From assembly GCA_011364965.1 (NCBI GenBank), contig RDOB01000008.1, positions 55,468 through 119,467 on the forward strand: a stretch of DNA of 64,000 nt. The letters are read 5' to 3'. This document shows positions 1 through 15,966 of the stretch, piece after piece. Each line of letters starts with the position of its first letter. The first letter of the stretch is position 1. Origin of the DNA: Candidatus Heimdallarchaeota archaeon (GTDB lineage: Archaea > Asgardarchaeota > Heimdallarchaeia > Hodarchaeales > Hodarchaeaceae). A program made the position numbers and the translations under genes. The notes beneath the pieces are model-generated. The model had not been told where the DNA came from. It ran no database searches and saw nothing but the letters and a program-made list of their open reading frames with translations.

Positions 1-561
1 TAACAAAAAAATCAATGTAATAAATTCAATTGCTTGATTCTCTACCCAATATACGATGAATCCTAAAATGAGAACTCCATTGTAAAGAATGACTAGCTCA
101 GAGGGGAGCCGCTTTCGAAATATGAAAATACTTGGATAACGTCCAGAATAATACTTTTGAATAAGAAAAAGTATCAACAGATATGATGAAAGACAAAATA
201 CAAGACTAAATAAATTTAGGAAAATATAGATAGCCCCATAACCAATTAAATCTAAGGAAAGAGTCATATTCAGGAAAGAGGTTTGTAAGAGACCATCTAA
301 ACCAATGGTAGCAGTACCAGCAAGAATACTTCCTCCAATCCCAGTAAGAGTAGGGATGAGGAGGAAAATACTAGCTGCTAGAGGTGCATTATAGGAATGA
401 TAATAGCGCCACTCTTCAAAAATTTTAATTACAGAAACAATGAATAATGTAATATAAAGAATGGTCAGAGAAATTTCACGAGATTGGCTTGTAAGATATG
501 AAAGCAGAGCAAAAACAGAACCAATAACGAGAATCGAAAGAAAAGCATTTCTTTTAACCAA
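1..561 (-). CDS. Multi-pass membrane protein, 3'-truncated by window edge; last visible gene of the Ubl operon (absent from ORF track)
   Basis: Manual translation from TTG at 561: MVKRNAFLSILVIGSVFALLSYLTSQSREISLTILYITLFIVSVIKIFEEWRYYHSYNAPLAASIFLLIPTLTGIGGSILAG...FITLIFLL, open for 187 codons to position 1; about 5-6 hydrophobic segments; starts 12 nt after the JAMM stop, with AGGA upstream. Confidence 0.8.
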   Translation of the reverse strand, partial: MVKRNAFLSILVIGSVFALLSYLTSQSREISLTILYITLFIVSVIKIFEEWRYYHSYNAPLAASIFLLIPTLTGIGGSILAGTATIGLDGLLQTSFLNMTLSLDLIGYGAIYIFLNLFSLVFCLSSYLLILFLIQKYYSGRYPSIFIFRKRLPSELVILYNGVLILGFIVYWVENQAIEFITLIFLL

Positions 562-573
562 CTAATGGACATC

Positions 574-1386
574 CTAATCATGGTCATATTCCAGAAACAT
601 TGTATCACCTTCAGCTAGAGGAAGGAGAGTACTTATCATATCAGGTAACCCGGAAAGTGGACAATTTAATACCTGAAAGCGGGGCTCCTCCCAACTTCGG
701 AGATCTTGCTTCAAACGAAAGATTTTAAATCCATAGGAATTTGTAGATATACGCGTAGGGTCAATAACCAGAGCAACAGGTGCTGTTAATGTGGAATTAT
801 TAGCCCCTAACCTTTGATACCGTACTTGTGTATCAAAATCCGTATCACTCATAAAAGAACCGTAGGATGGATGAGAATGATACCAGCCAAGAATAAATTC
901 CTTTTTTTTACTAGATTCATTAAATACTCGAACCATACTTTGGGGATTTCTAATTTGAGCTGTAATATTTGTACCATGACCAATAGGAAACGCATCAGTA
1001 GCTACTAAACAAGCCATCGGAGTGTCTTTATTCTCAATATATCCAGTTAATAAACCTATAACTTCCACCCATTTATGCTGAGGAATTTTAGGATTAGCAT
1101 ATTTCAAAGCGTGTAAAGTAAGCTTAATATAAGCTTTCAGATGCACTTTTACTCGTATAGGATCGGATTCGGGGTCTAAATCGCCTATTTCGATATCTTC
1201 AACTTCCTCAGAATGAGAATCTAGTTTAATATCATTATTATCATCGATTGGCACTTTTACGGCGTGATTTCCAGCAGTTGGAAATCGAACTGTCAATGTA
1301 AGATTATCAGGATCAAATTGAAGAGCCATGTCTCGTAAAAGAAGCTCAAAAAGGTTTTGAGGTCGGTTATTTGGTTCACGTTTCAT
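574..1386 (-). CDS. MPN+/JAMM metallo-isopeptidase (Rpn11/CSN5-like)
   Basis: EVIGLLTG, GWYHSHPSYGSFMSDTD (HxH-x7-S-x2-D JAMM motif), TQ..YQ and VALVIDPTR; acidic N-terminal extension of about 75 aa. Confidence 0.95.
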   Translation of the reverse strand: MKREPNNRPQNLFELLLRDMALQFDPDNLTLTVRFPTAGNHAVKVPIDDNNDIKLDSHSEEVEDIEIGDLDPESDPIRVKVHLKAYIKLTLHALKYANPKIPQHKWVEVIGLLTGYIENKDTPMACLVATDAFPIGHGTNITAQIRNPQSMVRVFNESSKKKEFILGWYHSHPSYGSFMSDTDFDTQVRYQRLGANNSTLTAPVALVIDPTRISTNSYGFKIFRLKQDLRSWEEPRFQVLNCPLSGLPDMISTLLPLAEGDTMFLEYDHD

Positions 1387-1406
1387 AATCTACCATACCT
1401 CAAACC

Positions 1407-1934
1407 TTACCAGTTCTGTTTTGCATATTTCTTCGTGATTTCTCTGGCTTTCTTCTTGAACTTTTCCTTGCTTTGAAGGTATTCAACTGCAGCTTTTTTA
1501 TTGAAGACATCATGTGGATTGGTATATGCCTCATCAATGTTGAACATTGCAAGAATAGAATAGATAACAGTAGAAATGTTCTTGGAAGGAGACCAACCTT
1601 GAGGAGATCCAATTAAATCAGGATCAACGAGTCCTAGACAAATATTACGCTTTCCTTGATATTCATCAGGCTTAGGCCAAAAATTCGGATGCCAAATTGG
1701 AGTATGGAGCCTAACAAAAGGGGGAGAGTACGGATAATTTGTCCCAAACAGAATTTCGAGCCGAAATTTCCCACCTTCATATGGGGTGCTTTTAGGACCT
1801 TCTAATAACACTGCAAGGTGTTCGATTGATTTTTTACCACCAGGAAATGCTTTGAGTTGTTTGATTGTTTTTTGTTTATAGAGAGTTTTAAGTTGATTAT
1901 AATCATCAGCTATTCTTTTAATGCGAATGGACAA
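1407..1934 (-). CDS. Ubiquitin-conjugating enzyme E2 (UBC fold)
   Basis: GPKSTPYEGGKF, YPYSPPFV, WHPN, ICL (Cys99), WSP, and AREITKKYA C-terminal helix. Confidence 0.97.
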   Translation of the reverse strand: MSIRIKRIADDYNQLKTLYKQKTIKQLKAFPGGKKSIEHLAVLLEGPKSTPYEGGKFRLEILFGTNYPYSPPFVRLHTPIWHPNFWPKPDEYQGKRNICLGLVDPDLIGSPQGWSPSKNISTVIYSILAMFNIDEAYTNPHDVFNKKAAVEYLQSKEKFKKKAREITKKYAKQNW

Positions 1935-1936
1935 AG

Positions 1937-3184
1937 TTAATCCTCCAGTTTAAGATTTAGATACAGTTGAGTCCCATCTGCAAATCCTGTAACAAAAAGA
2001 GATTCATAATCTCTTAATTTGGCCTCAGAAATAGATAATGTCCAATCTAGCTCCTCTATGTTAGAGGAATCGATCCGAAAGATTGTCGGAGGAAATTCCT
2101 CATCAAAATCCAAGCTCTTCTCTTGAGAGAGGCAAATGATAAGCTCTTTTAACAGATAATGATGCTTAGCTTTCACATGATAAATAGGAGAACGCTTAGA
2201 ACCGCACATGGCACAATTAGTGTTGATTGGTTTTTCAAATTCGTAAAATTTGCCCGATAAACCGTTATAAATCATATAATTCAATTGGAGAGAACCAAGT
2301 TTTCGATCTTTATCTGACGTGTGGAGATGATGCAGAATTTTGACTGCTTCTTGTGATTGAAGAGAGGCCATGACTGCGTTAATAGTGATGACTGTGGGTT
2401 CATGATTGTCAACTATCTGAATAATTTGATCATTGGTGAAAGGAATAGCAGTAGGAAAGTATTCTGTGAGTAATTTATTAGCATAATCCCGCACTGTAGT
2501 AACTTCTGAAGCAACAAGGATATCAACAGGATGGTTGTGATCTTTTTCAAATTGGAGTTGCCCCTTTAGAATACAATGTGCTGGACGGCGAGGTTTTCCT
2601 ACTAAGGTACAGGCTCCAAGCTGATCTTGAGCTCGTTCAGTAAGTGGATCACATTCCAAGCAAGCATTAGTAAAAGGCCAAACAATATAGAGGTGACCAT
2701 TATAAGCGGCCGTACCTGCGTCAATAAGCGGTTTTTTGTTATGAACTGCCCTCCGATTCAATTCAGAACGAGCCTCAATAGAATCTAAACCAGCAATATA
2801 GAGATCAACCTCTTTATAGATTTTTGGAGGAAGATCTTGAAGAGGAGAGTTATATGCATCAATTCTGATAAAGGGATTAATATCACGGAGACGCTTAGCA
2901 GCATATTCAGCTTTCGATACTCCTTCTGGAGCTCCAATAAATAAAATCTGGCGATTCAAATTCGAGTATTCCACAATATCGAGATCAACAAGAACTAAAT
3001 GCCCAACACCGACCATAGCAAGATTTTTGGCAACTTCCACACCCAAACCACCGACTCCAGCGATCAGGACAGAGCTGCGTTTCAAGAGTTCTTGACTCCA
3101 GCCAGGAAGACGAAATTGTCGGTCAAAACGCTGCTTCTCAGCTTGACTAAGACTAGTACTTCCAAAATTGGACATTTTATTCAC
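1937..3184 (-). CDS. Ubiquitin-like activating enzyme E1 (ThiF adenylation domain + catalytic-Cys insert + C-terminal UFD-like domain; Uba3/Uba2-like)
   Basis: RFDRQ, GVGGLG, DLDIVEYSNLNRQILF, LDSIEAR, CLEC...CAMC Zn pair, ACTLVGKPRRPAHCI catalytic-Cys motif. Confidence 0.95.
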   Translation of the reverse strand: MNKMSNFGSTSLSQAEKQRFDRQFRLPGWSQELLKRSSVLIAGVGGLGVEVAKNLAMVGVGHLVLVDLDIVEYSNLNRQILFIGAPEGVSKAEYAAKRLRDINPFIRIDAYNSPLQDLPPKIYKEVDLYIAGLDSIEARSELNRRAVHNKKPLIDAGTAAYNGHLYIVWPFTNACLECDPLTERAQDQLGACTLVGKPRRPAHCILKGQLQFEKDHNHPVDILVASEVTTVRDYANKLLTEYFPTAIPFTNDQIIQIVDNHEPTVITINAVMASLQSQEAVKILHHLHTSDKDRKLGSLQLNYMIYNGLSGKFYEFEKPINTNCAMCGSKRSPIYHVKAKHHYLLKELIICLSQEKSLDFDEEFPPTIFRIDSSNIEELDWTLSISEAKLRDYESLFVTGFADGTQLYLNLKLED

Positions 3185-3198
3185 TTCTTAGACCGATT

Positions 3199-3555
3199 CT
3201 AGTACCCTGCAGTACTGACTGGGATGATTAAAACTTCCATTCCATCTTCTACATCATAGTTTGAAACTACATCATCAGAATCAAGAGTACGCCCACTAAT
3301 AGATAAATGAAAATCATTGGGGTCTAATCCAAAGATTTCCCCAATTGTAGTTTTTAACTCACTTACTGACATTTCAGGGTCAACTCTTAATTTTTCTAAC
3401 TTCTCTCGAGGCCCAATAGTGGAACGAAAGAATAAGTTCACTGATGCGCCTCGTGAGGGGGTTTGTTTTGGTGTTTTGGATTGGATGGGTCTTTCTGTTT
3501 CTTGAATTTCTTCATCTAATTCATCTAGCTCTTCAAAATCCTCATTCTCTGACAT
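3199..3555 (-). CDS. Ubiquitin-like protein (Ubl-2), precursor ending STAG-Y
   Basis: Beta-grasp pattern (SVSELKTTI, FHLSISGRTLDSDDVVSNYDVEDGMEVLII); acidic N-terminal tail; 14 nt upstream of E1. Confidence 0.9.
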   Translation of the reverse strand: MSENEDFEELDELDEEIQETERPIQSKTPKQTPSRGASVNLFFRSTIGPREKLEKLRVDPEMSVSELKTTIGEIFGLDPNDFHLSISGRTLDSDDVVSNYDVEDGMEVLIIPVSTAGY

Positions 3556-3583
3556 CTAGCTTTCAATCCTCATATCGTAGTAG

Positions 3584-3629
3584 ACATGAAGTATTACCAA
3601 GATGTGTCTTAAAAGCTAATTGAAATATA
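3584..3629 (-). promoter_or_regulatory. Putative promoter of the Ubl-2/E1/E2/JAMM unit (TATA-like CTTTTAAG)
   Basis: Minus strand TATATTTC-AATT-AGCTTTTAAG-N8-TGGTA-ATAC-TTCATGT, collinear with the element upstream of Ubl-1. Confidence 0.55.
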
Positions 3630-3737
3630 TCCTTCAGAGGGAATGGAGAAATTGAGGAGCCATCACGTTCATACACGAGATAAACTCAGATTGATAGTAA
3701 TCTAGATTCCTCAGAAAAATAATAAGACCGCAAGGAC

Positions 3738-4085
3738 TTAACCTGCGGTCGAGTGAGGAATTAAAAGAACCTCGTCACCATTTTCAATACCATAATCCCC
3801 AATTGGGGCAGACTCGTCCATGGTACGACCAGCGTGACTAAGATGAAAGTCATCAGGGTTTAAACCAAAGATATTTGCTAGAGTATCTCGGACTTCTCTG
3901 ACAGGAGCTCTTTCCCCAACAGAGATCTTTTCAGTTCGTTCAGGACCAACGGTAGATTTAAAGAAAATGTTCTTTCGTGGACCAGCAGAGGCCCCAGAGA
4001 TAGGGGTCTTAGATTGTTGAGGGGTTTTTGATTTAACCTCAATTTTTTCGTCTAGATCAAAATCTAAATCTTCAAAATCACTCAT
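3738..4085 (-). CDS. Ubiquitin-like protein (Ubl-1), ending STAG
   Basis: Clear paralogue of Ubl-2 (NIFFKSTVGP, IFGLNPDDFHLSHAGRTMD, DYGIENGDEVLLIP). ATG at 4085 preferred over TTG at 4094 because GGATG lies upstream and MSDFED matches the Ubl-2 N-terminus. Confidence 0.9.
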   Translation of the reverse strand: MSDFEDLDFDLDEKIEVKSKTPQQSKTPISGASAGPRKNIFFKSTVGPERTEKISVGERAPVREVRDTLANIFGLNPDDFHLSHAGRTMDESAPIGDYGIENGDEVLLIPHSTAG

Positions 4086-4132
4086 ATTTTTCAAACATCC
4101 ATTTTTTTATGTTTAGAGTTTCATAAGAAACT

Positions 4133-4179
4133 ACATGAAAACTACGTACCATAAGTACTTATAAAGCTTACGAAATATA
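4133..4179 (-). promoter_or_regulatory. Putative promoter of Ubl-1 (TATA TTTATAAG) overlapping a 12-bp palindrome
   Basis: Minus strand TATATTTC-GTA-AGCTTTATAAG-TACTTA-TGGTA-N7-TTCATGT; perfect palindrome ATAAGTACTTAT at 4151-4162. Confidence 0.55.
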
Positions 4180-4259
4180 CGTAACACCCGAAAACTATAT
4201 TAGGGCGATTTTTACATATACTTCCTAATGTAAACGTTTTTTCCCCAGAGGTTTTATTT

Positions 4260-4655
4260 GTGTCAAAAGACGCCCAAAATATTAAGATTTCCAGTTCTGC
4301 TTGGGAATTACTGCGCTGGGCAAAATATGAATTAGAAGTGCGTTCCTATAGTGATGTAATAATAGCATTATACCAAAAAATCGAGTTAAAGCACTTAAGC
4401 AAGACATTACGTCAATCATTAAAAGATTTTGATGAAACGCGTCATAGAATTAAAATAAAGACTCCAGAAGATAAAACGGAAGCTCCTTATTTACCTAAAC
4501 CTAAAACCATTCTTCTTAGGCCAGATGCCCATAGAATCCTTAATTTATTAAAAATTGAGAGTAACGAACCAGCTTATACATTTTCAGATGCAATCGAATT
4601 TCTTGCAAAAAACAATTCTAACCTTTGGAATAAAATTCCTAACAGATTAAAATGA
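4260..4655 (+). CDS. Tandem ribbon-helix-helix (antitoxin/DUF217-like) DNA-binding protein
   Basis: Internal duplication NIKISSSAWELLRWAK...SYSDVIIAL / TILLRPDAHRILNLLK...TFSDAIEFL, each a strand-helix-S(F/Y)SD(V/A)I-helix unit. Confidence 0.65.
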   Translation: MSKDAQNIKISSSAWELLRWAKYELEVRSYSDVIIALYQKIELKHLSKTLRQSLKDFDETRHRIKIKTPEDKTEAPYLPKPKTILLRPDAHRILNLLKIESNEPAYTFSDAIEFLAKNNSNLWNKIPNRLK

Positions 4656-4798: not shown

Positions 4799-5506
4799 TC
4801 ATCCGTAAAGAGCAATTCCTGCTTCGATAATTACTGTGAGATATTCTGCTGTATCCCGTACCGCGTCAGAAGCCATTTCTAGATCAGTTGCTACTTCTAA
4901 GATAGTAAATAAGGTAGAATATGGTTCTTTTGCGTTACATATAATTAATGCTTTTTCTTTCATTTCCAGGAAAAGTGCGTCTGCTTCTCGTTCATAGTCC
5001 TCTACTTTTTTCCTCTTTTCAAGGATAAAGGTATCATCTTCTCCGATTTTCTCAATCGATGCCCAAACCAGTTTCACAGAATGATGAATTATTTCAATAA
5101 ATTTAGCGAAATAATCTATGATTTCCTCAGGCGCTTTCAGGTTGGTATGAATAAGTAAATGAAGCGTTTTCATGCTAGATTTGATTAAATTCACTGTAGA
5201 ATCATCCGATTTTAACAATCGAAATAAATTTTGTCTGATTACAGAAGGAAAGTAACCTTTAGCGATTTCATTTGCCAATCGCTCTTCAATTGCATCCGCA
5301 TCATGTTCAAATTTGATGATTCGGTTTATAATCACCTCTAGAGATGTCTCAGACTTGTATTCTGAATCCTGTAATAATTGAAGAAAGTCTCGTGCTGCAG
5401 TTGTTGCGTCATAGACTTTTATTACATGTTGGATCATTAAATTCTTGATTTTTAGATTTCTTCGTTCTTTAAACCATACAAGCATGCTTTTCGTTGTCTT
5501 ACTCAA
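4799..5506 (-). CDS. DUF47 / PhoU-like phosphate transport regulator
   Basis: EHDADAIEERL and EREADAL repeats, LEMASDAVRDTAEYL; all-helical. Confidence 0.85.
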   Translation of the reverse strand: MSKTTKSMLVWFKERRNLKIKNLMIQHVIKVYDATTAARDFLQLLQDSEYKSETSLEVIINRIIKFEHDADAIEERLANEIAKGYFPSVIRQNLFRLLKSDDSTVNLIKSSMKTLHLLIHTNLKAPEEIIDYFAKFIEIIHHSVKLVWASIEKIGEDDTFILEKRKKVEDYEREADALFLEMKEKALIICNAKEPYSTLFTILEVATDLEMASDAVRDTAEYLTVIIEAGIALYG

Positions 5507-6593
5507 GAGAAATCTCCTCCATTAATCCATCTTTGGGAATGGAAAATGCTTGTGTTCGATTCGGATCAAATGATACATAAACTACCTTATCTAAATGTAG
5601 TGGGCCCTCATAATCTGCTAAAACTGTATCGTCTGTACTAAGCCGGATTGCAATTCGATAAAAGCTTCCTGCAAATCTGGATTCTATAACTTTACCTTGG
5701 ATTGACGTTCCTTTCGTCTCTCGACTCGCTATTCTAACATTTTCGGGTCTAATGGCAAGAACTACTGACTCCCCTACTTTTAATGATGACTCATCTGGAA
5801 CCAAGATTCGAATGTTATGTCTTAGACGAACAACCATCGATTTTTCTTTTTTCTGGAGAATATATCCTTCAAAGAAGTTGGTTTCTCCGACAAAATTCAG
5901 TGTGAATAATGACTTAGGGAATTGATAAAGATTATTTGGGGTATTTATCTCATGAATATTACCATTCTTCATTAAAACCACACGATCTGAAATAGATAAG
6001 CATTCCTGCTGGTCATGGGTGATATGTATGGCTGTTAATCCCAATTTTTTTACTAATCCTCTAATTTGATAGCGAAGTTCCGTCCTTACTTTCGCATCGA
6101 GAGCTGAAATAGGTTCATCTAGGATTAATAGTTTTGATTCTTTAGCAATCGCTCTAGCTACCGCTGCTGCTTGTTGAGCGCCACTTGAAAGTTCACGGGG
6201 ATATAATTTCTTTTCTGCCAACAAATTCACGAGCTTTAATGCAGTATCGGATTGTATCTGGACTTCTTGCTCAGTTTTATCCATCATTCGCGTAGGATAC
6301 TCGACATTCTCTTGTATGGTCATATGAGGAAATAACGTAACGCTCTGAAAGACCATAGCAAAACCACGATCCTCAATTGGTAGACCAATGACATTTTTAT
6401 TATCAATACGAATTTCAGAACCCTCATCAGGTTCAATGATACCAGTAATACAGTTTATAAGAGTGGTTTTCCCGCAACCAGAAGGTCCAAGTATCCCAAC
6501 GTACTCTCCATCACTAATCTCGAGCTTTACGTTCCTTAATGCCTTAATATAGCCGAACGTTTTCGAAAGGTTCTTTATCTGAATATTAGGCAT
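5499..6593 (-). CDS. ABC importer ATP-binding subunit (PotA/MalK-like, with TOBE), degenerate signature
   Basis: GPSGCGKT, LILDEP, HITHD; signature reads LSSGAQQAAAVARA. Confidence 0.92.
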   Translation of the reverse strand: MPNIQIKNLSKTFGYIKALRNVKLEISDGEYVGILGPSGCGKTTLINCITGIIEPDEGSEIRIDNKNVIGLPIEDRGFAMVFQSVTLFPHMTIQENVEYPTRMMDKTEQEVQIQSDTALKLVNLLAEKKLYPRELSSGAQQAAAVARAIAKESKLLILDEPISALDAKVRTELRYQIRGLVKKLGLTAIHITHDQQECLSISDRVVLMKNGNIHEINTPNNLYQFPKSLFTLNFVGETNFFEGYILQKKEKSMVVRLRHNIRILVPDESSLKVGESVVLAIRPENVRIASRETKGTSIQGKVIESRFAGSFYRIAIRLSTDDTVLADYEGPLHLDKVVYVSFDPNRTQAFSIPKDGLMEEISLE

Positions 6594-6596
6594 TTC

Positions 6597-7724
6597 CTAT
6601 TCCTCTAAAAAGGGAGTTAAATCATGTGGCTCAATTTTCACCTGAACTAAACTATTAAGCTTGAATTTATCAACATCATAGGAGGAGATTCTAGCGATGA
6701 GAGGATTATTCATTCCTTCAATTTTAACTAAGATATTTGAGAATTTCCCCAAAAATACTCGATCAATGACCTCACCAGTGAAAATATTGTCTCCCTGAAA
6801 TTCATGGTTCGAATCCTCTATAGGATTAAGGTCAATTGTTTCAGTTTTAGCTAAAATTTTAACTTTCACTCCTTTTTCCAGCTCGGAAGGTCTACATATA
6901 AGCTGATGATTGCTAGGGAGCAGAACAATTGTACATTCATCGGTTATTTCTTGTATCACCCCTTCAAGAGACGTCGATTCACCAATGAAATATGCAGCAA
7001 AATAATTTTGTGGTCTATTGTATATAGTGGCTGGTTTCCCCATTTGAACAATTTTTCCTTCTTTAAGAACCAAAATCCTGTCAGCAATGCTTAATGCTTC
7101 ATCTTGGTCGTGTGTAACATGCAAACATGTGATCCCTAAGTCTTTAACTAAATGGCGTATCTCTGTTCGTAATTGTATGTTCAATCGAGCGTCCAATGCT
7201 CTTAAGGGTTCATCTAATAAGAAAATTTTTGTGTCTGCTGCGATTGCGCGGGCTAAACCTACTCGTTGCATCATTCCCCCCGATAATTCATTGGGAAAAG
7301 CATCGTATCTTTCTTTCAATCCGACCATATCAAGAACCTCGGTAACCAATTCAGTCATTTCATTGTCAGTCTTGGTTTTTTTAACTCGGGGAGAGAATAA
7401 CACATTGTCCCGAACATTCATGTATGGGAAGAGAGAATAATTTTGGGGCAGATAAGCGACTTCTCGATCTTCTGGTGGAAGATTGGTTATATCAAAATTT
7501 CCAATTACAATGTTACCTTGAGTTGGTTTGAGTAATCCTGCAATAGTTCTGAGTAGTGTTGTTTTACCAGCGCCTGTTGGACCTAGTATTACTAAATATT
7601 CTTTGGGATGGATTGTTAAGTGTAAATTATCAAGAACGGTTTTTTCTTGGAATTTTACTGTTAAATTACGAATTTTTATCGAATTTTCTGTGTACAATTT
7701 CCATAATTCTTGACGGAATTTCAT
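6597..7724 (-). CDS. ABC importer ATP-binding subunit (PotA/MalK-like, with TOBE)
   Basis: GPTGAGKT, LSGGMMQRVGLARA, LLDEP, HVTHD; the true start may be a few codons downstream. Confidence 0.93.
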   Translation of the reverse strand: MKFRQELWKLYTENSIKIRNLTVKFQEKTVLDNLHLTIHPKEYLVILGPTGAGKTTLLRTIAGLLKPTQGNIVIGNFDITNLPPEDREVAYLPQNYSLFPYMNVRDNVLFSPRVKKTKTDNEMTELVTEVLDMVGLKERYDAFPNELSGGMMQRVGLARAIAADTKIFLLDEPLRALDARLNIQLRTEIRHLVKDLGITCLHVTHDQDEALSIADRILVLKEGKIVQMGKPATIYNRPQNYFAAYFIGESTSLEGVIQEITDECTIVLLPSNHQLICRPSELEKGVKVKILAKTETIDLNPIEDSNHEFQGDNIFTGEVIDRVFLGKFSNILVKIEGMNNPLIARISSYDVDKFKLNSLVQVKIEPHDLTPFLEE

Positions 7725-7799
7725 TTGGCCTTTGATATCCCAAGGAGAATACGTTAACTCCGTCCGAATTCTTCTTGATTGGTCTGAATTTGAAATCTT

Positions 7800-9497
7800 T
7801 TAGACTCTCCTGACCTTTTTCTGGCCAAATGTGGTTCGTAAAACTAGAATAACTAGACTTGTACACACTATTAAAGCAATTATTGCTAATGAAGCATTAA
7901 AAAATTGATGCTCGTTGATTAAATTTACAATGAATACTGGAGCTGTTTCAAATCCAGTAGCAACTGCCAAAGTTGCTCCCGTTTCTCCAACAGAACGAGT
8001 AAAGGACATAATAATCCCAGCAATAATTGAAAATTTTATGATAGGAAGTGTTATTAGATAAAATATCTGAAAATTTCGGGCTCCTAATGTTCTAGCAGTC
8101 TCTTCATAATATAAATCTAAATCCTCAAGCCCACCAATGACATTTCTGACAATGAATGGAAAAGTCATTGCTGAATGTGCCATGATTACGAAAAATAATT
8201 GATTACTTATCAATTGTTGAGCATTCCAAAATAATCCTACAGAAAATCCCAATGCTGATGAAGGAACTACATAGGGAATATCAACTAGTACATTGAAAAA
8301 ATTACTGATTCTATTCTTCTTTCGTGAAATAAAAATTCCCAGTGGTACTCCTAATAAAACATTAATGGTTGTTGCAACAATAGAGACTATCAAGGAATTT
8401 GCAATACTTCCAAAAAATCGAAACCAGTCGACTTGAAGTGAGGAACTTGTAAAACCGATTGGAATATACAGAATTAAAAAGAAAGACGGTATTAAAACAA
8501 ATAAACCTAAAAATACAATTGCCAAGGTGTTTCTCGTTGTTATTGATCTCTTTTCACTTAATTTCCTCTCTGTTTCATACCAGACTTTTTTAATTGGTAT
8601 TTTCACTCTTTTTGCGATTAATCTAGATGTTGACATTAATATTAGAGCAATAAAGATCATTGCAACACATAAAAAAGCAAGAGGGGGAATCAAATCGAGA
8701 TTGACTCGTGCTGGAATATCTATTTCATGTTTCCATGTTCCAATCAAAACGGTTCCAGTCCATACAGAAATTTGCGTTGCAGAAAGTACAGACATCACAC
8801 CTCCCGTATCACTCAAGCTTTTGGCTAAGCTCAGTATAAGCGAAGTTGCTACCCCTGAACGGAATAGAGGAAATGTAATGGTTCGAGCTGCAGTAAAGGA
8901 AGAAGCACCACAGGTTCTTCCAGCGATTTCTAAATAAACATCGATTTCTTCTAGGATAGCTGCTAGGGATCTGACCACATAAGGAAAAGTTGTGGTAAAA
9001 TGAAATAATACAAGAATTGGCAAAGCAGATGTGATTATCCTCAAGGAAAAGGGAGGAGATGAAATACCTGGAACAACTCCCCAAAATAAGGCAACGGATA
9101 ACCCTAATCCAGCGGTTGGAACAGCTAGAGGTAGTTCTATAAGTATATTCAAGATAGTCTTTATTCTTCCTGAAAGCATTCCTCTAACTAGTAGCCAAGC
9201 CAAAGGAATACCAAAGATCAAATCAACAATTGAGACAATGACTGCAACACTAACAGAATAAAATAATGCTTCTTGTATCATATTAAATGCTTCAGGTTGT
9301 GTCTGAAAGTAGGCAATCACGACCTCTGATTGCCCAAAGAGATAAAAAATAACATAAACTGTTGGTGTTAATATTAAAAAGAGAAAAAAAGCTAATACAA
9401 AGAAGTAAAAAATCTTTGAAAGAAGACGACTACTACTAAAGGCAGAGAAATAATCTAAGAAAAGTGAAGCGTTAATTTTTCTCTGTTTGAAAGTCAT
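7800..9497 (-). CDS. ABC importer permease, fused two-domain (FbpB/ThiP/CysTW-like)
   Basis: About 12 TM segments and two EAA-like loops (LEIAGRTCGAS, YEETARTLGA), LPLAVP, FTRSVGETGA. Confidence 0.9.
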   Translation of the reverse strand: MTFKQRKINASLFLDYFSAFSSSRLLSKIFYFFVLAFFLFLILTPTVYVIFYLFGQSEVVIAYFQTQPEAFNMIQEALFYSVSVAVIVSIVDLIFGIPLAWLLVRGMLSGRIKTILNILIELPLAVPTAGLGLSVALFWGVVPGISSPPFSLRIITSALPILVLFHFTTTFPYVVRSLAAILEEIDVYLEIAGRTCGASSFTAARTITFPLFRSGVATSLILSLAKSLSDTGGVMSVLSATQISVWTGTVLIGTWKHEIDIPARVNLDLIPPLAFLCVAMIFIALILMSTSRLIAKRVKIPIKKVWYETERKLSEKRSITTRNTLAIVFLGLFVLIPSFFLILYIPIGFTSSSLQVDWFRFFGSIANSLIVSIVATTINVLLGVPLGIFISRKKNRISNFFNVLVDIPYVVPSSALGFSVGLFWNAQQLISNQLFFVIMAHSAMTFPFIVRNVIGGLEDLDLYYEETARTLGARNFQIFYLITLPIIKFSIIAGIIMSFTRSVGETGATLAVATGFETAPVFIVNLINEHQFFNASLAIIALIVCTSLVILVLRTTFGQKKVRRV

Positions 9498-9516
9498 ACG
9501 CGAACGTCCTATTCTT

Positions 9517-10269
9517 TCATTTAACTGGAGCGGCCATTACGATTGAATATAGGTAATCCGATGCTTTACTACATGCATCTGAAGCATTTTCTAAGGCTTT
9601 AGCAGAGTCCAGAGACAAAAATAACACCGAGTTGGGTAATTTATCACTTAATCGAAGAACAGCTTCTTTCGCTAAATAATAGACATCATCACCTTGCCGT
9701 TCTAATTTCTCAATTTTGTTCCGTTTTACGAGAATTTTTTGGTCATTTACTCCCAATAGATTAAGAGTTTCAATAAATAATATAACTGAATCCCTTGTTA
9801 TCTCAGACAACTGTATAAGATATTCAATCAATGGATCAGGATAGTTTAGTTTTAAATTAAGCATAAGATTTGCATTTTTAGATGCAGTTTTAACCCAATT
9901 TGCTGCTTCATCGATTCTACGAATCATTCGAAACAGATCCTCCTGTATATTGGCAGGAAACTCCCCATGGATAATTTCTTTCTCTGCTAATTCATCTTGG
10001 ATTTTATCTGCGGTTTCTTCGTTTAAACTAATTTGAGAGATTATTTGAAGCAACTTTTCATTTGAGGTATGTTTTATTGATTTATATAATGAAATTGATT
10101 CCTCACAAGTTTTTCTAACAGCAGTTGCATGATTTACCAATTTTTCCTTAACTATAAGATTCCTATTTGATTTAAACCATATTAGTAAACTTCTCTCGGT
10201 ACTCATTTGGTTTTGACTCCGGAGTTCAAAAGAATAGGATTTTTTTTGTTTGTAAACCCTTTGGATCAA
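9517..10269 (-). CDS. DUF47 / PhoU-like protein
   Basis: EETADKIQDEL, ERQGDDVY, LENASDAC; paralogue of 4799-5506. Likely start at MSTERS. Confidence 0.85.
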   Translation of the reverse strand: MIQRVYKQKKSYSFELRSQNQMSTERSLLIWFKSNRNLIVKEKLVNHATAVRKTCEESISLYKSIKHTSNEKLLQIISQISLNEETADKIQDELAEKEIIHGEFPANIQEDLFRMIRRIDEAANWVKTASKNANLMLNLKLNYPDPLIEYLIQLSEITRDSVILFIETLNLLGVNDQKILVKRNKIEKLERQGDDVYYLAKEAVLRLSDKLPNSVLFLSLDSAKALENASDACSKASDYLYSIVMAAPVK

Positions 10270-10456
10270 AATCTGTTTTCACGTTTAAATGTTTCGTGGA
10301 TACAGAAGGGACTGTGTTTCTAGTATACAAAAAAACCCTATAAGATAAATAAATTGTTCCCAAATAATTACTGAGTAGCTGGGGGATATTCAATTATAAA
10401 TAAAGCAAAGAATGTTATTTATTACTCTTGAAACTTAAAAAAAAGAAATTTAATGT

Positions 10457-10877
10457 CTAGAATTCTGAATCAATCCATGAAGCGATCTGATTTCTTACTT
10501 TCCGAAATTTAGAACAAATTTTTCCCTTATTAATAGATCTAAGGTTTGGATCAGGAAAATTACGATATATAATTTTACCAGCTGTAGGGAAATAGGGACA
10601 GTTTCTCACGAGCTTTATCACATAGAGTTATTACTCTGTCAAATTTATCATTAAAGTATAATTCAATTGATTTAGATGATTGATTAGATATATCAATCCC
10701 AATTTCTCTCATCACTTCAATTGTATAAGAGCTTACAACAGTAGGAGAATTTCCTGGATTAAAAATCTCATACCGATCCCCCAATTTAAACCGTAGAAAT
10801 CCTTCAGATATTTGACTTCGAGCTGAATTACGTGTACAAATAAAAAGGATTTTTTCTTTTTGCAGTTTATCGGTCAA
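10457..10877 (-). pseudogene. arsC: Frameshifted arsenate reductase / LMW-PTP family gene
   Basis: ILFICTRNSARSQ P-loop; after a +1 shift at about 10602 the frame continues CPYFPTAGKIIYRNFPDP...FRKVRNQIASWIDSEF* to TAG at 10457. Confidence 0.85.
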
Positions 10878-10933
10878 AATAATACCCTTGTTTTTGTATC
10901 GAATAAAGACTATACGTTTAATACCACAAAGGG

Positions 10934-11509
10934 CTAAAATGGGATTAAAAGTTTTTCTTCATCAATTAAACCAAAAGCTTTTAGATAAAGCAGGGTGGCA
11001 ATAGTCTTCCCATCAATAATTGATCCATTGCTTATCATCTCGAAAGCTAAAGAAAGTGGCATCATTTTCACTTCATGAATTTCATCATTTGGATTATAAT
11101 GATGTTCAATCTTCTTTAAATCCTTCGCTATGCATATCCAAAGGATCTCATTTGAATAATGAGGGGAGGGAATAAAATTAAAGAGTAATTCAACAGGAGA
11201 AGTATACCCTGTTTCCTCTTCTAGCTCTCGTCTAGCAGAATCCTCTATTTGTTCATTTATTTCAACTTTTCCAGCAGGAAATTCATAGGTTAACCGTTTA
11301 ATCGCATAACGATATTGTCTTACCAAAATTACAGTCTGAGGATCTATAAAAGGTGCAATTACGCACACTTGGGGAAAATCAACCCATATTCGTTCCTCTT
11401 GTGTCCCGTTTGAGACTAATACATCATCTACTACCACTCCAAAAGATTTTCCTTTGTAGGACATCTTTTCCCGAAGTTTTGTCTCTGGTTCTTCCATCGA
11501 TAAAGCCAC
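10934..11509 (-). CDS. NUDIX hydrolase (ADP-ribose pyrophosphatase-like)
   Basis: LVRQYRY, EFPAGKVE...ARRELEEETGY Nudix box, IIDGKT. Confidence 0.93.
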   Translation of the reverse strand: MALSMEEPETKLREKMSYKGKSFGVVVDDVLVSNGTQEERIWVDFPQVCVIAPFIDPQTVILVRQYRYAIKRLTYEFPAGKVEINEQIEDSARRELEEETGYTSPVELLFNFIPSPHYSNEILWICIAKDLKKIEHHYNPNDEIHEVKMMPLSLAFEMISNGSIIDGKTIATLLYLKAFGLIDEEKLLIPF

Positions 11510-11681
11510 ATTCCTAGCATATAATTGAATTTTCTAATTTTTAATAATTTAAATTAATATATAATATTGATTATCAAATTAATAGCTTTTAAGCATGAAT
11601 ATTATTAATAAATTTCTGTCTTGAGAAGAGAATATTAAAGCAATGAAAAAGGGAGGAGGAAAAGAATCCCTTAAAATTATG

Positions 11682-12989
11682 TTAAAAGTACTCTTTCTTC
11701 TCTGGAACGCTCTTCCAGTTGAAAAGTAAGACTATCCCACCAAGAAGAGCCATTGTGACCCAAAACAAAAAGGTAGATTCTGGTCCTTCCGCTCCAAGAA
11801 GAATACCAGATCCAAAAGTAGTAATAGCAGAGCCTACATAACCCCAACCATCAATAAATCCAGTAGCTGTGGATGCAGCTTTTCTTGTACCAAATTCCAT
11901 CGGAATTGTGGATACTAGTAATACATGGGGACCAAAGGTTAGAAAACCAATTATAATAAGCAGAGGAGCCCCTATTAACCAATCAAGTGGTGGAAGAATC
12001 GAATAAATGAATATTGAACCAGCTAGTGTTAAAAATAGTATACTAATTAATGGCATTCGTCTTCGTTCTAAGTATCGATCAGAAATCCATGTGCATGTAA
12101 TTGCTCCTATGGTTCCTCCTAGTGGAAAAGCAATGGTTTTCCAGAGAGGAAAAAAATCACCTTTAATGACTTCTTGGGCTAATAGATAAGGAAGCCATTC
12201 TGTAATTCCATATCGTACAATATTTAAGCAAAATAGTCCAAAAGAAGCAAATAAAACCGTTCGATTCCGAATTATTGATCCAATAGTATAAGAAAATCCC
12301 AAATAATTGTCTGTCCGGACATTTCCTAAGGTGGTTTTTCCTGCTTCCTCTTCTTCAATTGTAGGTAAACCAACCTCCTCTGGAGCATTTCGAACACGAA
12401 TGTACCAGTGAATTCCCGAGGCAAGCATAATCAAACCTGCGACCCAAAATGAAAATCGCCAATCCAAGCCGAGTGTAACAATCAAAAAGGTTGCTAAAAT
12501 CCAAGATATAGCTCCACCGATTTGATATGAAGTCCCCAGACGTCCTGACCACTTTCCTCGGTCATTGGGAGGGTACCAGTTTGCAACAGTCTTTACGGAG
12601 GGAGCCCAACCCATCGATTGGAAAAAACCATTTAAACCCCATAGAATAAACATCATCCAAACTAATCCATTTGTAAACCCAAATAATAGATTAATTATTG
12701 ATGATACAATTAAACCGATCGCTACAAACCGCTGTGCTCCGAATTTGTCTCCTAGAGCTCCATTGACGAATTGACCAATAGCGTACATTATGAAAAGTGC
12801 TGTTCCTACTAGACCAAAGGTGGCTGGATCGATAGAAAACTCGGCCATTATAAATGGTTTCGCAATTCCGATATTAACTCGCCCTAGATAATATGTCATA
12901 TATGTTACCCATACTGTAATAAAAATCCGCGCCCGCCAGTATCGCCAAGTCTCATTTATATCTGATTTCACTTCACTCATTTTTCTCAT
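11682..12989 (-). CDS. MFS organophosphate:Pi antiporter (GlpT/UhpC family)
   Basis: YYLGRVN, LNGFFQSMGWAP, WYPPNDRG, PEEVGLP, NIVRYG, ATGFIDGWGYVG; 12 TM. Confidence 0.92.
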   Translation of the reverse strand: MRKMSEVKSDINETWRYWRARIFITVWVTYMTYYLGRVNIGIAKPFIMAEFSIDPATFGLVGTALFIMYAIGQFVNGALGDKFGAQRFVAIGLIVSSIINLLFGFTNGLVWMMFILWGLNGFFQSMGWAPSVKTVANWYPPNDRGKWSGRLGTSYQIGGAISWILATFLIVTLGLDWRFSFWVAGLIMLASGIHWYIRVRNAPEEVGLPTIEEEEAGKTTLGNVRTDNYLGFSYTIGSIIRNRTVLFASFGLFCLNIVRYGITEWLPYLLAQEVIKGDFFPLWKTIAFPLGGTIGAITCTWISDRYLERRRMPLISILFLTLAGSIFIYSILPPLDWLIGAPLLIIIGFLTFGPHVLLVSTIPMEFGTRKAASTATGFIDGWGYVGSAITTFGSGILLGAEGPESTFLFWVTMALLGGIVLLFNWKSVPEKKEYF

Positions 12990-13010
12990 CCCATTATGTC
13001 TGAGTCGAAC

Positions 13011-13775
13011 TTAAAGTAAGCCTTTCTTGATCAATTGTTTTGCGTATTCATAATCTTGCATCGTATCTATCTCAACCCATCCCTTTTGAATATCCACAGA
13101 ATGAACAGGGTACCCCCTTGCAATCAATTCTTGAATCATGTCCGTTAAATAAGCATAATCTAAAATTGTGGCATCATGAAAACGTCCTTCGAACTTACAC
13201 CATTTATTATCTCTTACACGATAATAATTTCTTCTGAAAGTTTCCGAACCTTTCTTAGAAAATTTAGCTAATCCAATAAATTCCCCATATGCTACAGCTG
13301 GATTGAAAAATTTGGATAAGCGAGTTACTAGCCCATCCTCAACACATGCAAGCTCTGCCTCATCTGTGGGATGTTCAGTGCGGCCCTTATATCTTTCTTC
13401 CCATTCAGTGTCGATAATTAAGCTGATATCATGTGGTGAATCCAAGAGTTTTTGTATTACTTCTTTTGAATATAAAATATCGCAATAGGAAACCAGAAAT
13501 TCGTCTTGCATGAATTCCTCAGCATAAAAAAGAGAGCTAAGAATATTATTCTTAAGATAGTTATCGTTGTCAAAGTATGTTAAATTTGGTATTGTGAATT
13601 TCTCTTTCTGATAACCTCTTACTACTGCGATCTCATCTATACCACAGCTTCTATAGGCTTCGAGAAGTCTCTGTAATATTGGTTTCCCTTCTATTGGAAC
13701 TAATGTTTTAGGGCTATCATCCGTTAAAGGTCGCATTCGCGAACTAGGTCCTGCTGCTAATATAATTGCCTTCAT
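13011..13775 (-). CDS. Phosphocholine/phosphonate cytidylyltransferase family (LicC-like)
   Basis: MKAIILAAG.SSRM.PLT...PK, NNILSSL, SYCDILY, GEFIGLAKF, WVEIDT. Confidence 0.9.
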   Translation of the reverse strand: MKAIILAAGPSSRMRPLTDDSPKTLVPIEGKPILQRLLEAYRSCGIDEIAVVRGYQKEKFTIPNLTYFDNDNYLKNNILSSLFYAEEFMQDEFLVSYCDILYSKEVIQKLLDSPHDISLIIDTEWEERYKGRTEHPTDEAELACVEDGLVTRLSKFFNPAVAYGEFIGLAKFSKKGSETFRRNYYRVRDNKWCKFEGRFHDATILDYAYLTDMIQELIARGYPVHSVDIQKGWVEIDTMQDYEYAKQLIKKGLL

Positions 13776-13900
13776 TATTGACTTACCACTGTTTTCTATG
13801 TTATTTAGTGCTGAAGAGATTTTTTGTCATATCAGTTTGTAAATATTTTTAAGTATTATATGATTTTCATTAACATATACAGGAAAATAGAAGATATGAT

Positions 13901-14803
13901 ATGGTTTTTATTAAAAAAGTTCATTCGGGTAGTAAAACCTATTATTATCTTGTCCAGAGTATTTCTGATGGACGAGTAAATATATCACAGAATACCATTC
14001 GACGCTTAACGCCTGAAGAAGCCAATGATCCTACTTTTATATCGAAATTTCTTCAGGAAAATCCAAAATATCAGAAAACAGGAATTCAAGCTATCATTCT
14101 AGCTGCAGGTAAATCACAAAGACTATTCCCTTATTCTCAGGATTTACCTAAAGTATTGATTCCAATTGAGAAGAAAACAATCTTGGAGCATTCGATCGAT
14201 AATTTACATTCTAATGGAATTAATGAATTGTTCGTGGTCACTGGATTTCAAGATGAGAAAATAAGAAGAAAAATCAAAAGTAATGTTAAATATATTTTTA
14301 ATCCATTTTTTACTGTTTCAAATATACTCGCCTCGGTTTGGTTTGCTCTTTCGGATATGAAAGGACCCTTATTTATCTTATATGGTGATATTCTTTATAA
14401 TAAACAGATTATAACTGATCTTTTAAAGGATGAACACGACTTCTCCGTGGCTATTACAACTTATCAAGGAAAAATTGGTGCAGAAAAGGTTCTCGTTGAA
14501 AACGAATATATTCTAGAAGCGAATAAAGATATATATCCCAATCTTACATCTTATGAATATGCAGGGATTGCCAAATTTAATACAACTGGAGTTGGGTATT
14601 TAAAAGAAACGTTAGAAGAGATGTCACGAGAAGAGGGGTTTTTAACATATCTATTTACAGATATTCTTGAACGTTTGATTCTAAAAGGCCATAAGATTTT
14701 CACAATTCATATATCCCCTGACGAATGGATTGATATTGATATCCCCAAGGATATTCACCGTGCGAGTAATGAGATTCTACCCAATCTATTGAAACACCGA
14801 TGA
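13901..14803 (+). CDS. LicC-like NTP-transferase with extra N-terminal beta-rich putative DNA-binding domain
   Basis: Residues ~62-300 carry AIILAAGKSQRL, YGDILY and WIDID; residues 1-40 are MVFIKKVHSGSKTYYYLVQS...TIRRL. Confidence 0.85.
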   Translation: MVFIKKVHSGSKTYYYLVQSISDGRVNISQNTIRRLTPEEANDPTFISKFLQENPKYQKTGIQAIILAAGKSQRLFPYSQDLPKVLIPIEKKTILEHSIDNLHSNGINELFVVTGFQDEKIRRKIKSNVKYIFNPFFTVSNILASVWFALSDMKGPLFILYGDILYNKQIITDLLKDEHDFSVAITTYQGKIGAEKVLVENEYILEANKDIYPNLTSYEYAGIAKFNTTGVGYLKETLEEMSREEGFLTYLFTDILERLILKGHKIFTIHISPDEWIDIDIPKDIHRASNEILPNLLKHR

Positions 14804-14815
14804 TTTTGGTAAAAA

Positions 14816-15169
14816 TCAGTGTTTCCTTAATGTTGGCATTTCAGGTAATTCCCTCTTACTCTCTGTATATGATTTCAAAAAATGCAACAAACCAGCATAA
14901 AAGATTGACGTAGCAATAATAAGGAGGGAGAAAACCTGCAAGAAGCTTATTGTGTTTACTTTTCCGAGATATTCATCTGTATAAATTAAAACTTGTTGCT
15001 GAGTAACAACAGTTTCATTTTCAATTGTATCTAATGTTGCTACTCGATATGTAGGCATGGTATATGTCAAGATATTATATACTAAAACGCTAAAACTTGT
15101 TATAATAACCAGAACCATTATGATGGTTAGAATGAATACAAAGACCTTTGTTACGCCTGAATTCGACAT
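14816..15169 (-). CDS. Small 2-TM hypothetical protein
   Basis: Two hydrophobic helices; GGAG upstream of ATG. Confidence 0.7.
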   Translation of the reverse strand: MSNSGVTKVFVFILTIIMVLVIITSFSVLVYNILTYTMPTYRVATLDTIENETVVTQQQVLIYTDEYLGKVNTISFLQVFSLLIIATSIFYAGLLHFLKSYTESKRELPEMPTLRKH

Positions 15170-15427
15170 GATGAGTACGACTCCGTGACAATTATTTGGG
15201 TAAAGGAGATCTAGTGATTTAAATTATTCCGAATTGAGTTCTGAGGAAAAAATCTTCTCCCTAGAATTAAAAGGGATTATTTGGATAAGCATGCTTTGTG
15301 AGAATAGCTTTCTCAATATCGGTTTACAAAATGGCTGAATTTAGGTTATAACCTGTTGAATGTTTTTAATAATGTCCTGTAAGCTTAAAAAGAATCACAA
15401 TTTATCGTAAATTCTTGGTGAATTATT

Positions 15428-15922: not shown

Positions 15923-15966
15923 AATATACAACAAATTCAACCCCCGAAAGCAAGATAGGATTATTT

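Follow-up and report, generated by a model that had tools for sequence, protein, structure and literature searches.

A predicted ubiquitin-like conjugation cassette with Ala-Gly-ended tags and a candidate membrane RING ligase in a Hodarchaeales archaeon

We analysed a 64,000-nucleotide stretch of DNA (the window) from Candidatus Heimdallarchaeota archaeon (Hodarchaeales; assembly GCA_011364965.1, 2.97 Mb, 87% complete), which corresponds to C1:55468-119467, where C1 is contig RDOB01000008.1. Its beginning carries a compact gene set that probably forms a self-contained cassette for conjugation and deconjugation of ubiquitin-like proteins (Ubls), parallel to the Gly-Gly ubiquitin systems of the same cell. 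The genes lie on the minus strand and encode two tags, Ubl-1 (3738-4094, 118 amino acids, Pfam ubiquitin 29.5 bits) and Ubl-2 (3199-3555, 118 amino acids, Pfam ubiquitin 30.3 bits), an activating enzyme E1 (1937-3184, 415 amino acids, Pfam ThiF 180.8 bits), a conjugating enzyme E2 (1407-1934, 175 amino acids, Pfam UQ_con 93.5 bits), a JAMM protease (574-1386, 270 amino acids, Pfam JAB 48.8 bits), and a membrane protein whose open reading frame (ORF) is open at the window edge (1-561). The part of this last ORF inside the window encodes the N-terminal multi-pass domain of a predicted RING-type ligase (E3); the full ORF spans C1:54925-56028 (367 amino acids), and 2 nt after it comes the gene for a RING-less twin (C1:54317-54922, 201 amino acids). 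The two Ubl genes are 182 nt apart, and the gaps from Ubl-2 through E1, E2, and JAMM to the membrane ORF are 14, 2, 20, and 12 nt. A sequence-only reading of the window had described six co-oriented ORFs with these gaps; ORF mapping reproduced all of them, and Pfam backs both Ubls, the E1, the E2, and the JAMM protein. The same reading had seen no RING gene, which is true inside the window, but the membrane ORF runs past the window edge into a conserved RING-type finger.

The two tags are paralogues with 48% identity. Ubl-1 has an acidic disordered N-terminal tail and is encoded in mature form, with the stop codon directly after its end (H-S-T-A-G-stop), while Ubl-2 is a precursor form in which a single Tyr caps the Ser-Thr-Ala-Gly (STAG) sequence (V-S-T-A-G-Y-stop). 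An AlphaFold2 (AF2) model of Ubl-2 places a beta-grasp fold at residues 39-112 (predicted local distance difference test, pLDDT, ~90) behind a disordered tail (residues 1-34). The best Foldseek matches of this fold were the Caldiarchaeum ubiquitin and ubiquitin, with ISG15, SUMO2, and NEDD8 present just among many equal matches; in agreement, the family profile scored best against ubiquitin, an archaeal “putative ubiquitin”, and the Caldiarchaeum ubiquitin among solved structures. All 23 members of the Ubl family match Pfam ubiquitin, and the STAG end, preceded by Ile-Pro-x, is invariant in all 23, which come from many Asgard lineages. The acidic Phe-containing tail (35-45 residues) and a Ser-Lys-Thr-Pro motif are also conserved among them. 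Beyond STAG, the orthologues have no cap or one to three variable residues (Y, IYY, K, KC, I, M), and in one Hodarchaeales locus (L017:5906-6595) the Ubl-1 orthologue is a head-to-tail tandem of two units with STAG at the end of each. The fixed STAG sequence, the varying caps, and the tandem di-Ubl, which resembles polyubiquitin genes, argue for cleavage after the Gly. The cassette tags carry no C-terminal Gly-Gly and have only the last Gly in common with Gly-Gly ubiquitins, and at least the last 25 residues of the tag contain neither Lys nor Arg.

Longer proteins with a domain of the STAG-Ubl family are encoded near the cassette in Lokiarchaeia-type loci (L061:13570-14460, L059:9691-11448, L055:2230-3024, and L062:10697-11494), and one of them ends in S-T-A-G-F-F. 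The single Gly and an “IP-x4-G” spacing gave the idea of a UFM1-family tag, and Asgard “Ufm1 homologues” whose termini are disordered, as well as multi-hit proteins, have been reported (PMC12962969); Pfam, the PDB profile search, and the top 50 Foldseek matches returned no UFM1 match. A UBA5-type E1, as used for UFM1, was rejected as well, with 92 bits for UBA5 against 181 for UBA3 when the profile of the cassette E1 was searched.

The E1 has a single ThiF adenylation domain, an Arg motif near its N-terminus, a pair of CxxC zinc motifs, and a short catalytic-Cys domain (Cys192 in A-C-T). The G-x-G-G-x-G motif, the Mg-binding Asp, both CxxC pairs, and Cys192 are invariant in 23 orthologues, and the N-terminal R-Q-x-R motif is kept. 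The C-terminal region is presumably a ubiquitin-fold domain, judging by its length and by Supplementary Table 2 of PMC5654768, in which Asgard E1-like proteins with a C-terminal Ubl domain are listed. Close relatives of the E1 are labelled Hodarchaeales, Hodarchaeum mangrovi, Heimdallarchaeota, and others, and the best 120 relatives in the sequence search are Asgard-labelled or nameless orthologues, all with at least 49% identity.

From motif strings in the E1 and JAMM, all of which are found in the translations, the sequence-only reading had concluded that the E1 tracks the NEDD8 E1 subunit Uba3, that the JAMM is of the CSN5 type, and that the pathway may be kin to the ancestor of NEDD8- and SUMO-type modification. 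The E1 scores look favourable to this proposal at first: the family profile has UBA3 as its top solved match (180.6 bits, one stretch at positions 34-361), followed by UBA1 (174) and UBA2 (166), and JGI annotation labels some orthologues “E1 C”. The lead of UBA3 in bits is small, and it arises because the small Cys domain of UBA3 permits one contiguous alignment. With the window E1 alone, UBA1 scored 127 bits over two domains, UBA3 111 bits in a single stretch (31-358), and UBA2 103 bits. Likewise, PMC5654768 names the human NEDD8 E1 as the predicted structural counterpart of the Caldiarchaeum E1, and reports PHYRE2 matches to NEDD8 or SUMO E1 structures for the C-terminal domains of the Asgard E1-like proteins that it lists.

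The phylogeny of the E1 was inferred with IQ-TREE (LG+C20 with posterior mean site frequencies, PMSF; 81 rows and 432 columns) from a sample of the 150 best representatives drawn from 1.84 billion proteins, and the supports below are ultrafast bootstrap and SH-aLRT values. A named Paratrimastix NEDD8 E1, a named fish UBA1, and the domains E2_bind (UBA3) and UAE_UbL (UBA2) served as anchors, and UBA1-type rows were trimmed to their active half. The cassette E1 forms a clade (100/99) inside a larger clade of archaeal E1s of ~410 amino acids (99/96), which also contains the E1 of a second system in this genome (system B, below) and a Helarchaeota protein. Eukaryotic E1s group as UBA3 (100/97) and UBA1+UBA2 (100/99), and UBA1+UBA2+UBA3 together are monophyletic (100/94). 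The join between the archaeal ~410-amino-acid E1s and the eukaryotic E1s has moderate support (90/83); opposite this join, the short ESCRT-linked E1 clusters with MoeB-like rows (95/95). With the root assumed on the MoeB-like rows, and with rows that are mostly unnamed representatives and few anchors, the archaeal clade that includes the cassette E1 is sister to UBA1+UBA2+UBA3 jointly, and the split of UBA1, UBA2, and UBA3 postdates their separation from the archaeal E1s sampled here. A tree constrained to join the cassette E1 with UBA3 was rejected by the approximately unbiased (AU) test (delta lnL 68, p-AU = 0.003). On the evidence of the maximum-likelihood tree and the AU test, the cassette E1 has no special tie to UBA3; although UBA3 scores best by profile, the E1 nests among archaeal E1s and outside the eukaryotic clade, and the claim that it tracks Uba3 does not hold.

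A related observation concerns the organization of E1s in archaea. On a Logan contig (SRR18214653, our locus L149) that is densely packed and prokaryote-like, an 800-amino-acid protein (L149:1291-3693) has two ThiF domains and is a single-chain pseudo-dimeric E1 laid out like UBA1; a gene for an 85-amino-acid ubiquitin lies at 351-608 of the same contig. In the E1 tree this protein falls within the archaeal clade, beside a Helarchaeota E1, and it may represent an independent or early fusion of an inactive and an active adenylation half in archaea.

The adenylation core of the cassette E1 also scores well against MoeB and ThiF, as expected if the tags were sulfur carriers or used by an E1-only system of the SAMP/Urm1 kind, with the E2, JAMM, and membrane genes as mere neighbours. 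We regard this as barely conceivable: the E1 has a catalytic-Cys insertion and no rhodanese domain, and in the tree it stands away from MoeB- and UBA4-like rows. The E2, JAMM, and RING genes keep a tight order (gaps of 2-20 nt) across the phylum, and the tags match ubiquitin in all 23 family members and ThiS in just two of them, at E >= 0.14.

The E2 has a UBC fold with the HPN motif and the catalytic Cys99; H82-P83-N84 and C99 are invariant in 22 orthologues, and the mean column identity is 70%. Aligned to UBE2T, it has seven extra residues between HPN and the Cys and a further insert after the Cys. Its best PDB profile matches are Ubc13, UBE2T, and Rad6 (Ubc13 75, UBE2T 69, and UBE2F 65 bits); Ubc9 is absent from the top matches, and Ubc12 is not the closest.

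The metal site of the JAMM is intact, with the upstream Glu (E108) and H-x-H-x7-S-x2-D invariant in 23 orthologues, and the enzyme is predicted to process precursors and to remove the tag. Its profile scored 91.7 bits against the Caldiarchaeum Rpn11-like protein (the nearest solved structure), 87.5 against yeast Rpn11, 83.3 against CSN5, and 79.8 against human Rpn11. In this comparison of profile scores, CSN5 does no better than Rpn11, and the assignment to a CSN5 type has no basis there. Nor do the motifs quoted for it carry it: HSHPSYG is a trait of the cassette JAMM family, and the “TR” after VIDP occurs in the window copy only, the rest of the family having TK, TE, YQ, YL, and others. CSN5 has HSHPGYG and Rpn11 HSHPGFG, and the cassette sequence differs from both. 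At the C-terminus, most JAMM orthologues have a conserved acidic tail, Leu-Glu-Tyr-Asp-(Glu/His)-(Glu/Asp), which may serve for docking; their N-terminal extension varies and spans 75-130 residues.

Taken together with the E1 tree, these matches bear on the proposal that a Uba3-type E1 and a CSN5-type JAMM belong to a neddylation- or SUMO-like pathway, which we find hardly credible. In its favour, besides the E1 scores, stand HSHPSYG and VIDPTR in the window JAMM, the long, SUMO-like N-terminal tails of the tags, and Rad60-SLD scores of 18.6 and 22.9 bits for the window tags, just under the cut-off of 23.8. These are outweighed by the exclusion of the E1 from the eukaryotic clade, by JAMM scores in which Rpn11 is at least equal to CSN5, by an E2 that is neither Ubc12- nor Ubc9-like, by tags whose best match is ubiquitin, and by a cassette that holds no gene for an NAE1- or Aos1-type partner. 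The E1 tree, the JAMM scores, and the E2 and Ubl matches thus all lack a specific affinity to NEDD8 or SUMO pathways, and the proposed link to their ancestor falls away. Cullin (PF00888) and PCI (PF01399) domains were not found in the genome either, which is weak evidence because the assembly is 87% complete and the controls were also silent. A SUMO pathway on its own was rejected on the scores of both tags below the Rad60-SLD cut-off, the position of the E1 outside UBA2, and the absence of Ubc9 from the top E2 matches.

The C-terminal ~85 residues of the 367-amino-acid membrane protein form a finger that is conserved in 22 orthologues, with the pattern C-x2-C-x13-17-C-P-x-C-x2-P-x-H-x2-E-x3-W-x6-C-x-R-C, in which the Glu is near-invariant. 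Pfam assigns Prok-RING_1 to all 22 orthologues (best E 1.2e-5) and zf-RING_2 to 14 of them (best E 1e-6), and in the PDB the finger profile matches RNF24 (3.7e-5), EL5, RNF165, RNF4, and RNF38, and more weakly, among many other RINGs, those of synoviolin, AMFR, and HRD1. An AF2 model of the finger reaches a pLDDT of 93, and its top 50 PDB matches in Foldseek are all RING or U-box domains (template modelling score, TM, ~0.5-0.6). The ligand spacing is that of the small RING in the ESCRT-linked system of the same genome, where His replaces the Glu. In the orthologues, the part of the linker of the membrane protein that corresponds to the 120 nt just before the window (~40 residues) is rich in Ser, Thr, Arg, and Gln. 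The twin is a paralogue of the membrane domain without a RING (hhalign probability 96.7%, E 3.9e-10); this kinship is seen by profile-profile comparison alone, as BLASTP of the twin against the RING protein gave no significant match (E = 0.8). An Atlas search with the membrane RING protein found nothing beyond the unnamed Promethearchaeota cluster to which it belongs and weak leads to Prok-RING_1. From the conserved pattern and the model, we predict that this protein is the RING-type E3 of the cascade in a variant form, anchored in the membrane and with Glu at a ligand position.

A cassette with a protease that would expose a single terminal Gly, as in Atg8, and with dedicated membrane-embedded partners might also join its tag to a lipid or another non-protein component of the membrane. 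This reading is highly improbable in our view: the E2 is a canonical UBC enzyme with an invariant HPN, unlike Atg3 and Atg10; the E1 is not Atg7-like (36 bits); and fingers of the RING type, such as that of the membrane partner, are typical of transfer to lysines.

We favour protein modification by a self-contained Ubl cassette, for which we propose the following course. Two paralogous beta-grasp tags would be made, one ready for use with its STAG end and the other capped, or, in relatives, fused in tandem; the JAMM of the operon would trim the precursor and expose the terminal Gly. The single-chain E1 would adenylate this Gly and form a thioester on Cys192. It probably acts as a homodimer, since the kept N-terminal Arg motif and the lack of a partner-subunit gene suggest a MoeB-like arrangement: the cassette contains no second ThiF gene, and the other four of the five ThiF genes of the genome each lie in their own context. 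The tag would then be handed to Cys99 of the E2, and the multi-pass membrane protein with its cytosolic RING-type finger, probably paired with the RING-less twin, would bring the charged E2 to target lysines at or in the membrane. The same JAMM could take the tag off again. That such cascades can operate is supported by the E1/E2/RING/Rpn11 sets of Caldiarchaeum and Helarchaeia, which work in vitro (PMC5654768; 10.1101/2023.07.25.550441).

Several points speak against this scheme. The finger has seven invariant Cys/His ligands and a Glu where a RING has eight, the window's own copy lies under the Pfam cut-offs, and the Foldseek E-values of the finger are 2e-3 or weaker. The membrane domains match no known family in Pfam-type scans and in the Atlas search. 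We also know of no case in which an E1 of this class has been shown to accept an Ala-Gly end. A predicted complex of the E2 with the RING domain had a score of 0.35, with one control at 0.60, and is no argument on binding either way.

Twenty-two loci from more than 10 family codes show the order Ubl, E1, E2, JAMM, and membrane RING, with the twin added in Heimdallarchaeia. This order recurs in the complete Heimdallarchaeota chromosome CP070695.1, in JGI contigs, and in 20 further loci from other family codes. E1 identity is ~70% within the genus and 50-54% within the class, and it drops to 41-46% for other classes. In many genomes the E1 matches are at paralogue level only. Searches of species genomes confirmed the cassette E2 in 182 stretches, and names were checked for the best 80 of these 182, all of which are Asgard-named or just “uncultured archaeon” or “archaeon”. 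Named carriers include Hodarchaeum, Heimdallarchaeota, the cultured Lokiarchaeum ossiferum Loki-B35 (cassette at about 3.534-3.540 Mb of CP104013.1), Promethearchaeum, Helarchaeota, and Sigynarchaeum, together with Hermod-, Thor-, and Odinarchaeota-labelled records.

This distribution bears on the question of whether the cassette could be an antiviral module of the bacterial Bil or CBASS-Cap2 kind that tags viral proteins. The four-part composition of Ubl, E1, E2, and JAB is shared with such defence systems, and weak PADLOC matches exist (66 bits for a Cap2-type E1-E2 to the ThiF part and 24 bits for JAB), as does an NCBIfam match to 6A-MBL cap2_3 (35 bits). Against this, the PADLOC matches are generic and far under family level, and the Ubl, the E2, and both membrane proteins match nothing in PADLOC 2.0.0 (2023), a release that may lack Bil models. 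Synteny across the phylum and orthologue identity that falls with kinship fit vertical descent, which is favoured over the patchy spread of defence islands. The neighbours of the cassette are ABC transporter and PhoU-like genes, and the genome has a separate JAB-ThiF-E2 cluster of bacterial type at another locus. We consider a defence role very improbable.

The genome contains five ThiF and four UBC genes, and besides the cassette there are three further Ubl-related systems. System B, on contig C13, comprises a 107-amino-acid Gly-Gly Ubl, a 416-amino-acid E1, an E2, zinc ribbons, a JAB protein that is truncated, and a protein that marginally matches UFL1; in locus L011 (C13:30001-46000), the E2 lies at 7363-7905 (-), the Ubl at 8965-9288 (+), the E1 at 9315-10565 (+), and a 582-amino-acid gene at 11080-12828 (+). 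Its Ubl ends in Ile-Lys-Gly-Gly and is above the Rad60-SLD cut-off, and the adjoining protein scores 24.0 bits for E3_UFM1_ligase (cut-off 23.2). System C is ESCRT-linked and occupies 4910-16883 of locus L012 (C16:68001-88000), with an E2, a small RING, a small GTPase, a KaiC-like protein, a 77-amino-acid Gly-Gly ubiquitin, a 331-amino-acid E1, a UEV-domain protein, and Vps28. System D, of bacterial type, occupies 5358-8435 of locus L013 (C16:98001-110000) with a Prok-JAB protein, a ThiF protein of 419 amino acids, and a pair of small proteins that weakly match UBC or Prok-E2. The cassette E1 shares 35% identity with the E1 of system B and 29% with that of system C, which is ~50 residues shorter at the catalytic-Cys domain. 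Because systems B, C, and D are present in the same genome, the cell has several Ubl pathways, the cassette among them. With a separate Gly-Gly system linked to ESCRT elsewhere and a STAG end that is invariant in its 23 family members, the earlier suggestion of a distinct Ubl pathway stands.

Several neighbouring features accompany the cassette. Upstream and divergent lies a gene for a small VapB-like protein (4260-4655, plus strand), which the sequence-only reading had named a ribbon-helix-helix (RHH) gene; its divergent position is seen and recurs beside the cassette in loci L015, L017, L052, L065, and L066, while the RHH assignment stays below the Pfam threshold (VAPB_antitox 23.6 bits against a cut-off of 27.9). 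This gene, which is separated from Ubl-1 by a divergent region of 165 nt, is a candidate regulator of the operon. Related Hodarchaeales loci keep an ORF of 64-69 amino acids between Ubl-1 and Ubl-2 (L015:6270-6464, L017:6678-6887, and L065:9824-10027), and the matching 182-nt gap of the window (3556-3737, minus strand) holds no ORF of at least 40 amino acids. In Hodarchaeales loci, the twin gene is followed by one for a low-complexity protein of ~230-290 amino acids rich in Lys and Pro (C1:53523-54221, minus strand; L015:11600-12349; L017:13615-14295). Its many K-x-P and K-I-P-K repeats recall S-K-T-P in the tails of the Ubls, and a role as substrate or adaptor is possible. On the other side, positions 4799-10269 encode an ABC importer, made up of a fused permease and two ATPases, with a DUF47/PhoU-like gene at its flank, an ordinary neighbourhood in which no defence or mobile-element genes were found.

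Earlier work has concentrated on Gly-Gly ubiquitin, small soluble RINGs, and the link to ESCRT, and the Asgard ubiquitin studies consulted deal with the Gly-Gly, ESCRT-linked system (PMC9192718; 10.1101/2023.07.25.550441). One genome survey names just the ESCRT and LAMTOR-Rab-DENN neighbourhoods as conserved operons of eukaryotic signature proteins. Among the papers covered by full-text search, we found no Ala-Gly-ended Asgard Ubl, no tandem form, and no multi-pass membrane RING with a RING-less twin. The cassette adds a separate modifier in many Asgard lineages. Tentatively, and with more doubt than confidence, we propose that it represents a second Asgard modifier orthogonal to Gly-Gly ubiquitin, which would have its own E1, E2, and isopeptidase and, as its sole dedicated ligase, the membrane RING protein with its twin; that membrane tagging would be pre-eukaryotic; and that the E1 lineage, together with the paralogous Gly-Gly lineage, would be the closest archaeal kin of all canonical eukaryotic E1s, nearer than the ESCRT-linked E1. 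The cassette also makes the time at which ubiquitin-type tagging first came to membranes a question for experiment. It tempts one to place NEDD8- or SUMO-type pathways in archaea, an inference that the analysis shows to be wrong. The cassette offers a testable example of a prokaryotic cell with two orthogonal Ubl pathways. Proteomics of di-Gly remnants would miss its conjugates, because the last residues of the tag (at least 25) have no Lys or Arg and the remnant would end in Ala-Gly.

Among known systems, the membrane ligases Hrd1/synoviolin, gp78/AMFR, and MARCH share with the candidate ligase several membrane helices and a cytosolic RING-type finger. This likeness is one of architecture: the membrane domains have no detectable similarity, the cassette finger is C4-H-(E)-C2 and not C3H2C3 or C4HC3, and since the membrane domains belong to no known family, nothing ties them to eukaryotic membrane ligases by descent. 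With the NEDD8 pathway, the cassette has in common an E1 of similar size and domain order whose best-scoring solved match is UBA3, and a JAMM in the Rpn11/CSN5 class. In contrast to that pathway, it has no gene for a heterodimer partner, no Ubc12-type E2, and no LRGG tag, and the 87%-complete genome yielded no cullin or PCI partner.

Clusters of genes for ubiquitin, E1, E2, RING, and JAMM proteins are known from archaea (Nunoura 2011, PMC3082918), and Hennell James 2017 (PMC5654768) sorts them into Clusters I-III. The ESCRT-linked Asgard system (Hatano et al. 2022, PMC9192718; Lu et al. 2023/2024, 10.1101/2023.07.25.550441) resembles the cassette in its E1/E2/RING cascade and its ubiquitin-fold tag. 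It differs in its 77-amino-acid Gly-Gly ubiquitin, its 331-amino-acid E1 without the Cys-domain insert, its small soluble RING, and its ESCRT neighbours, and its E1 (system C) groups with MoeB-like rows and not within the clade shared by the cassette E1 and eukaryotic E1s. The operonic systems of the Caldiarchaeum type (PMC5654768) share the same five functions in one place, a UBC E2, an Rpn11-class JAMM that matures a capped precursor, and the fold of the tag. Compared with them, the cassette has a STAG instead of a Gly-Gly end, an acidic tail of 35-45 residues on its tags, and inserts in the active-site loop of its E2. Whereas the Caldiarchaeum type uses a small RING finger protein, the RING-type finger of the cassette forms the C-terminus of a multi-pass membrane protein; it has Glu at one ligand position, and a RING-less paralogue of the protein is encoded beside it.

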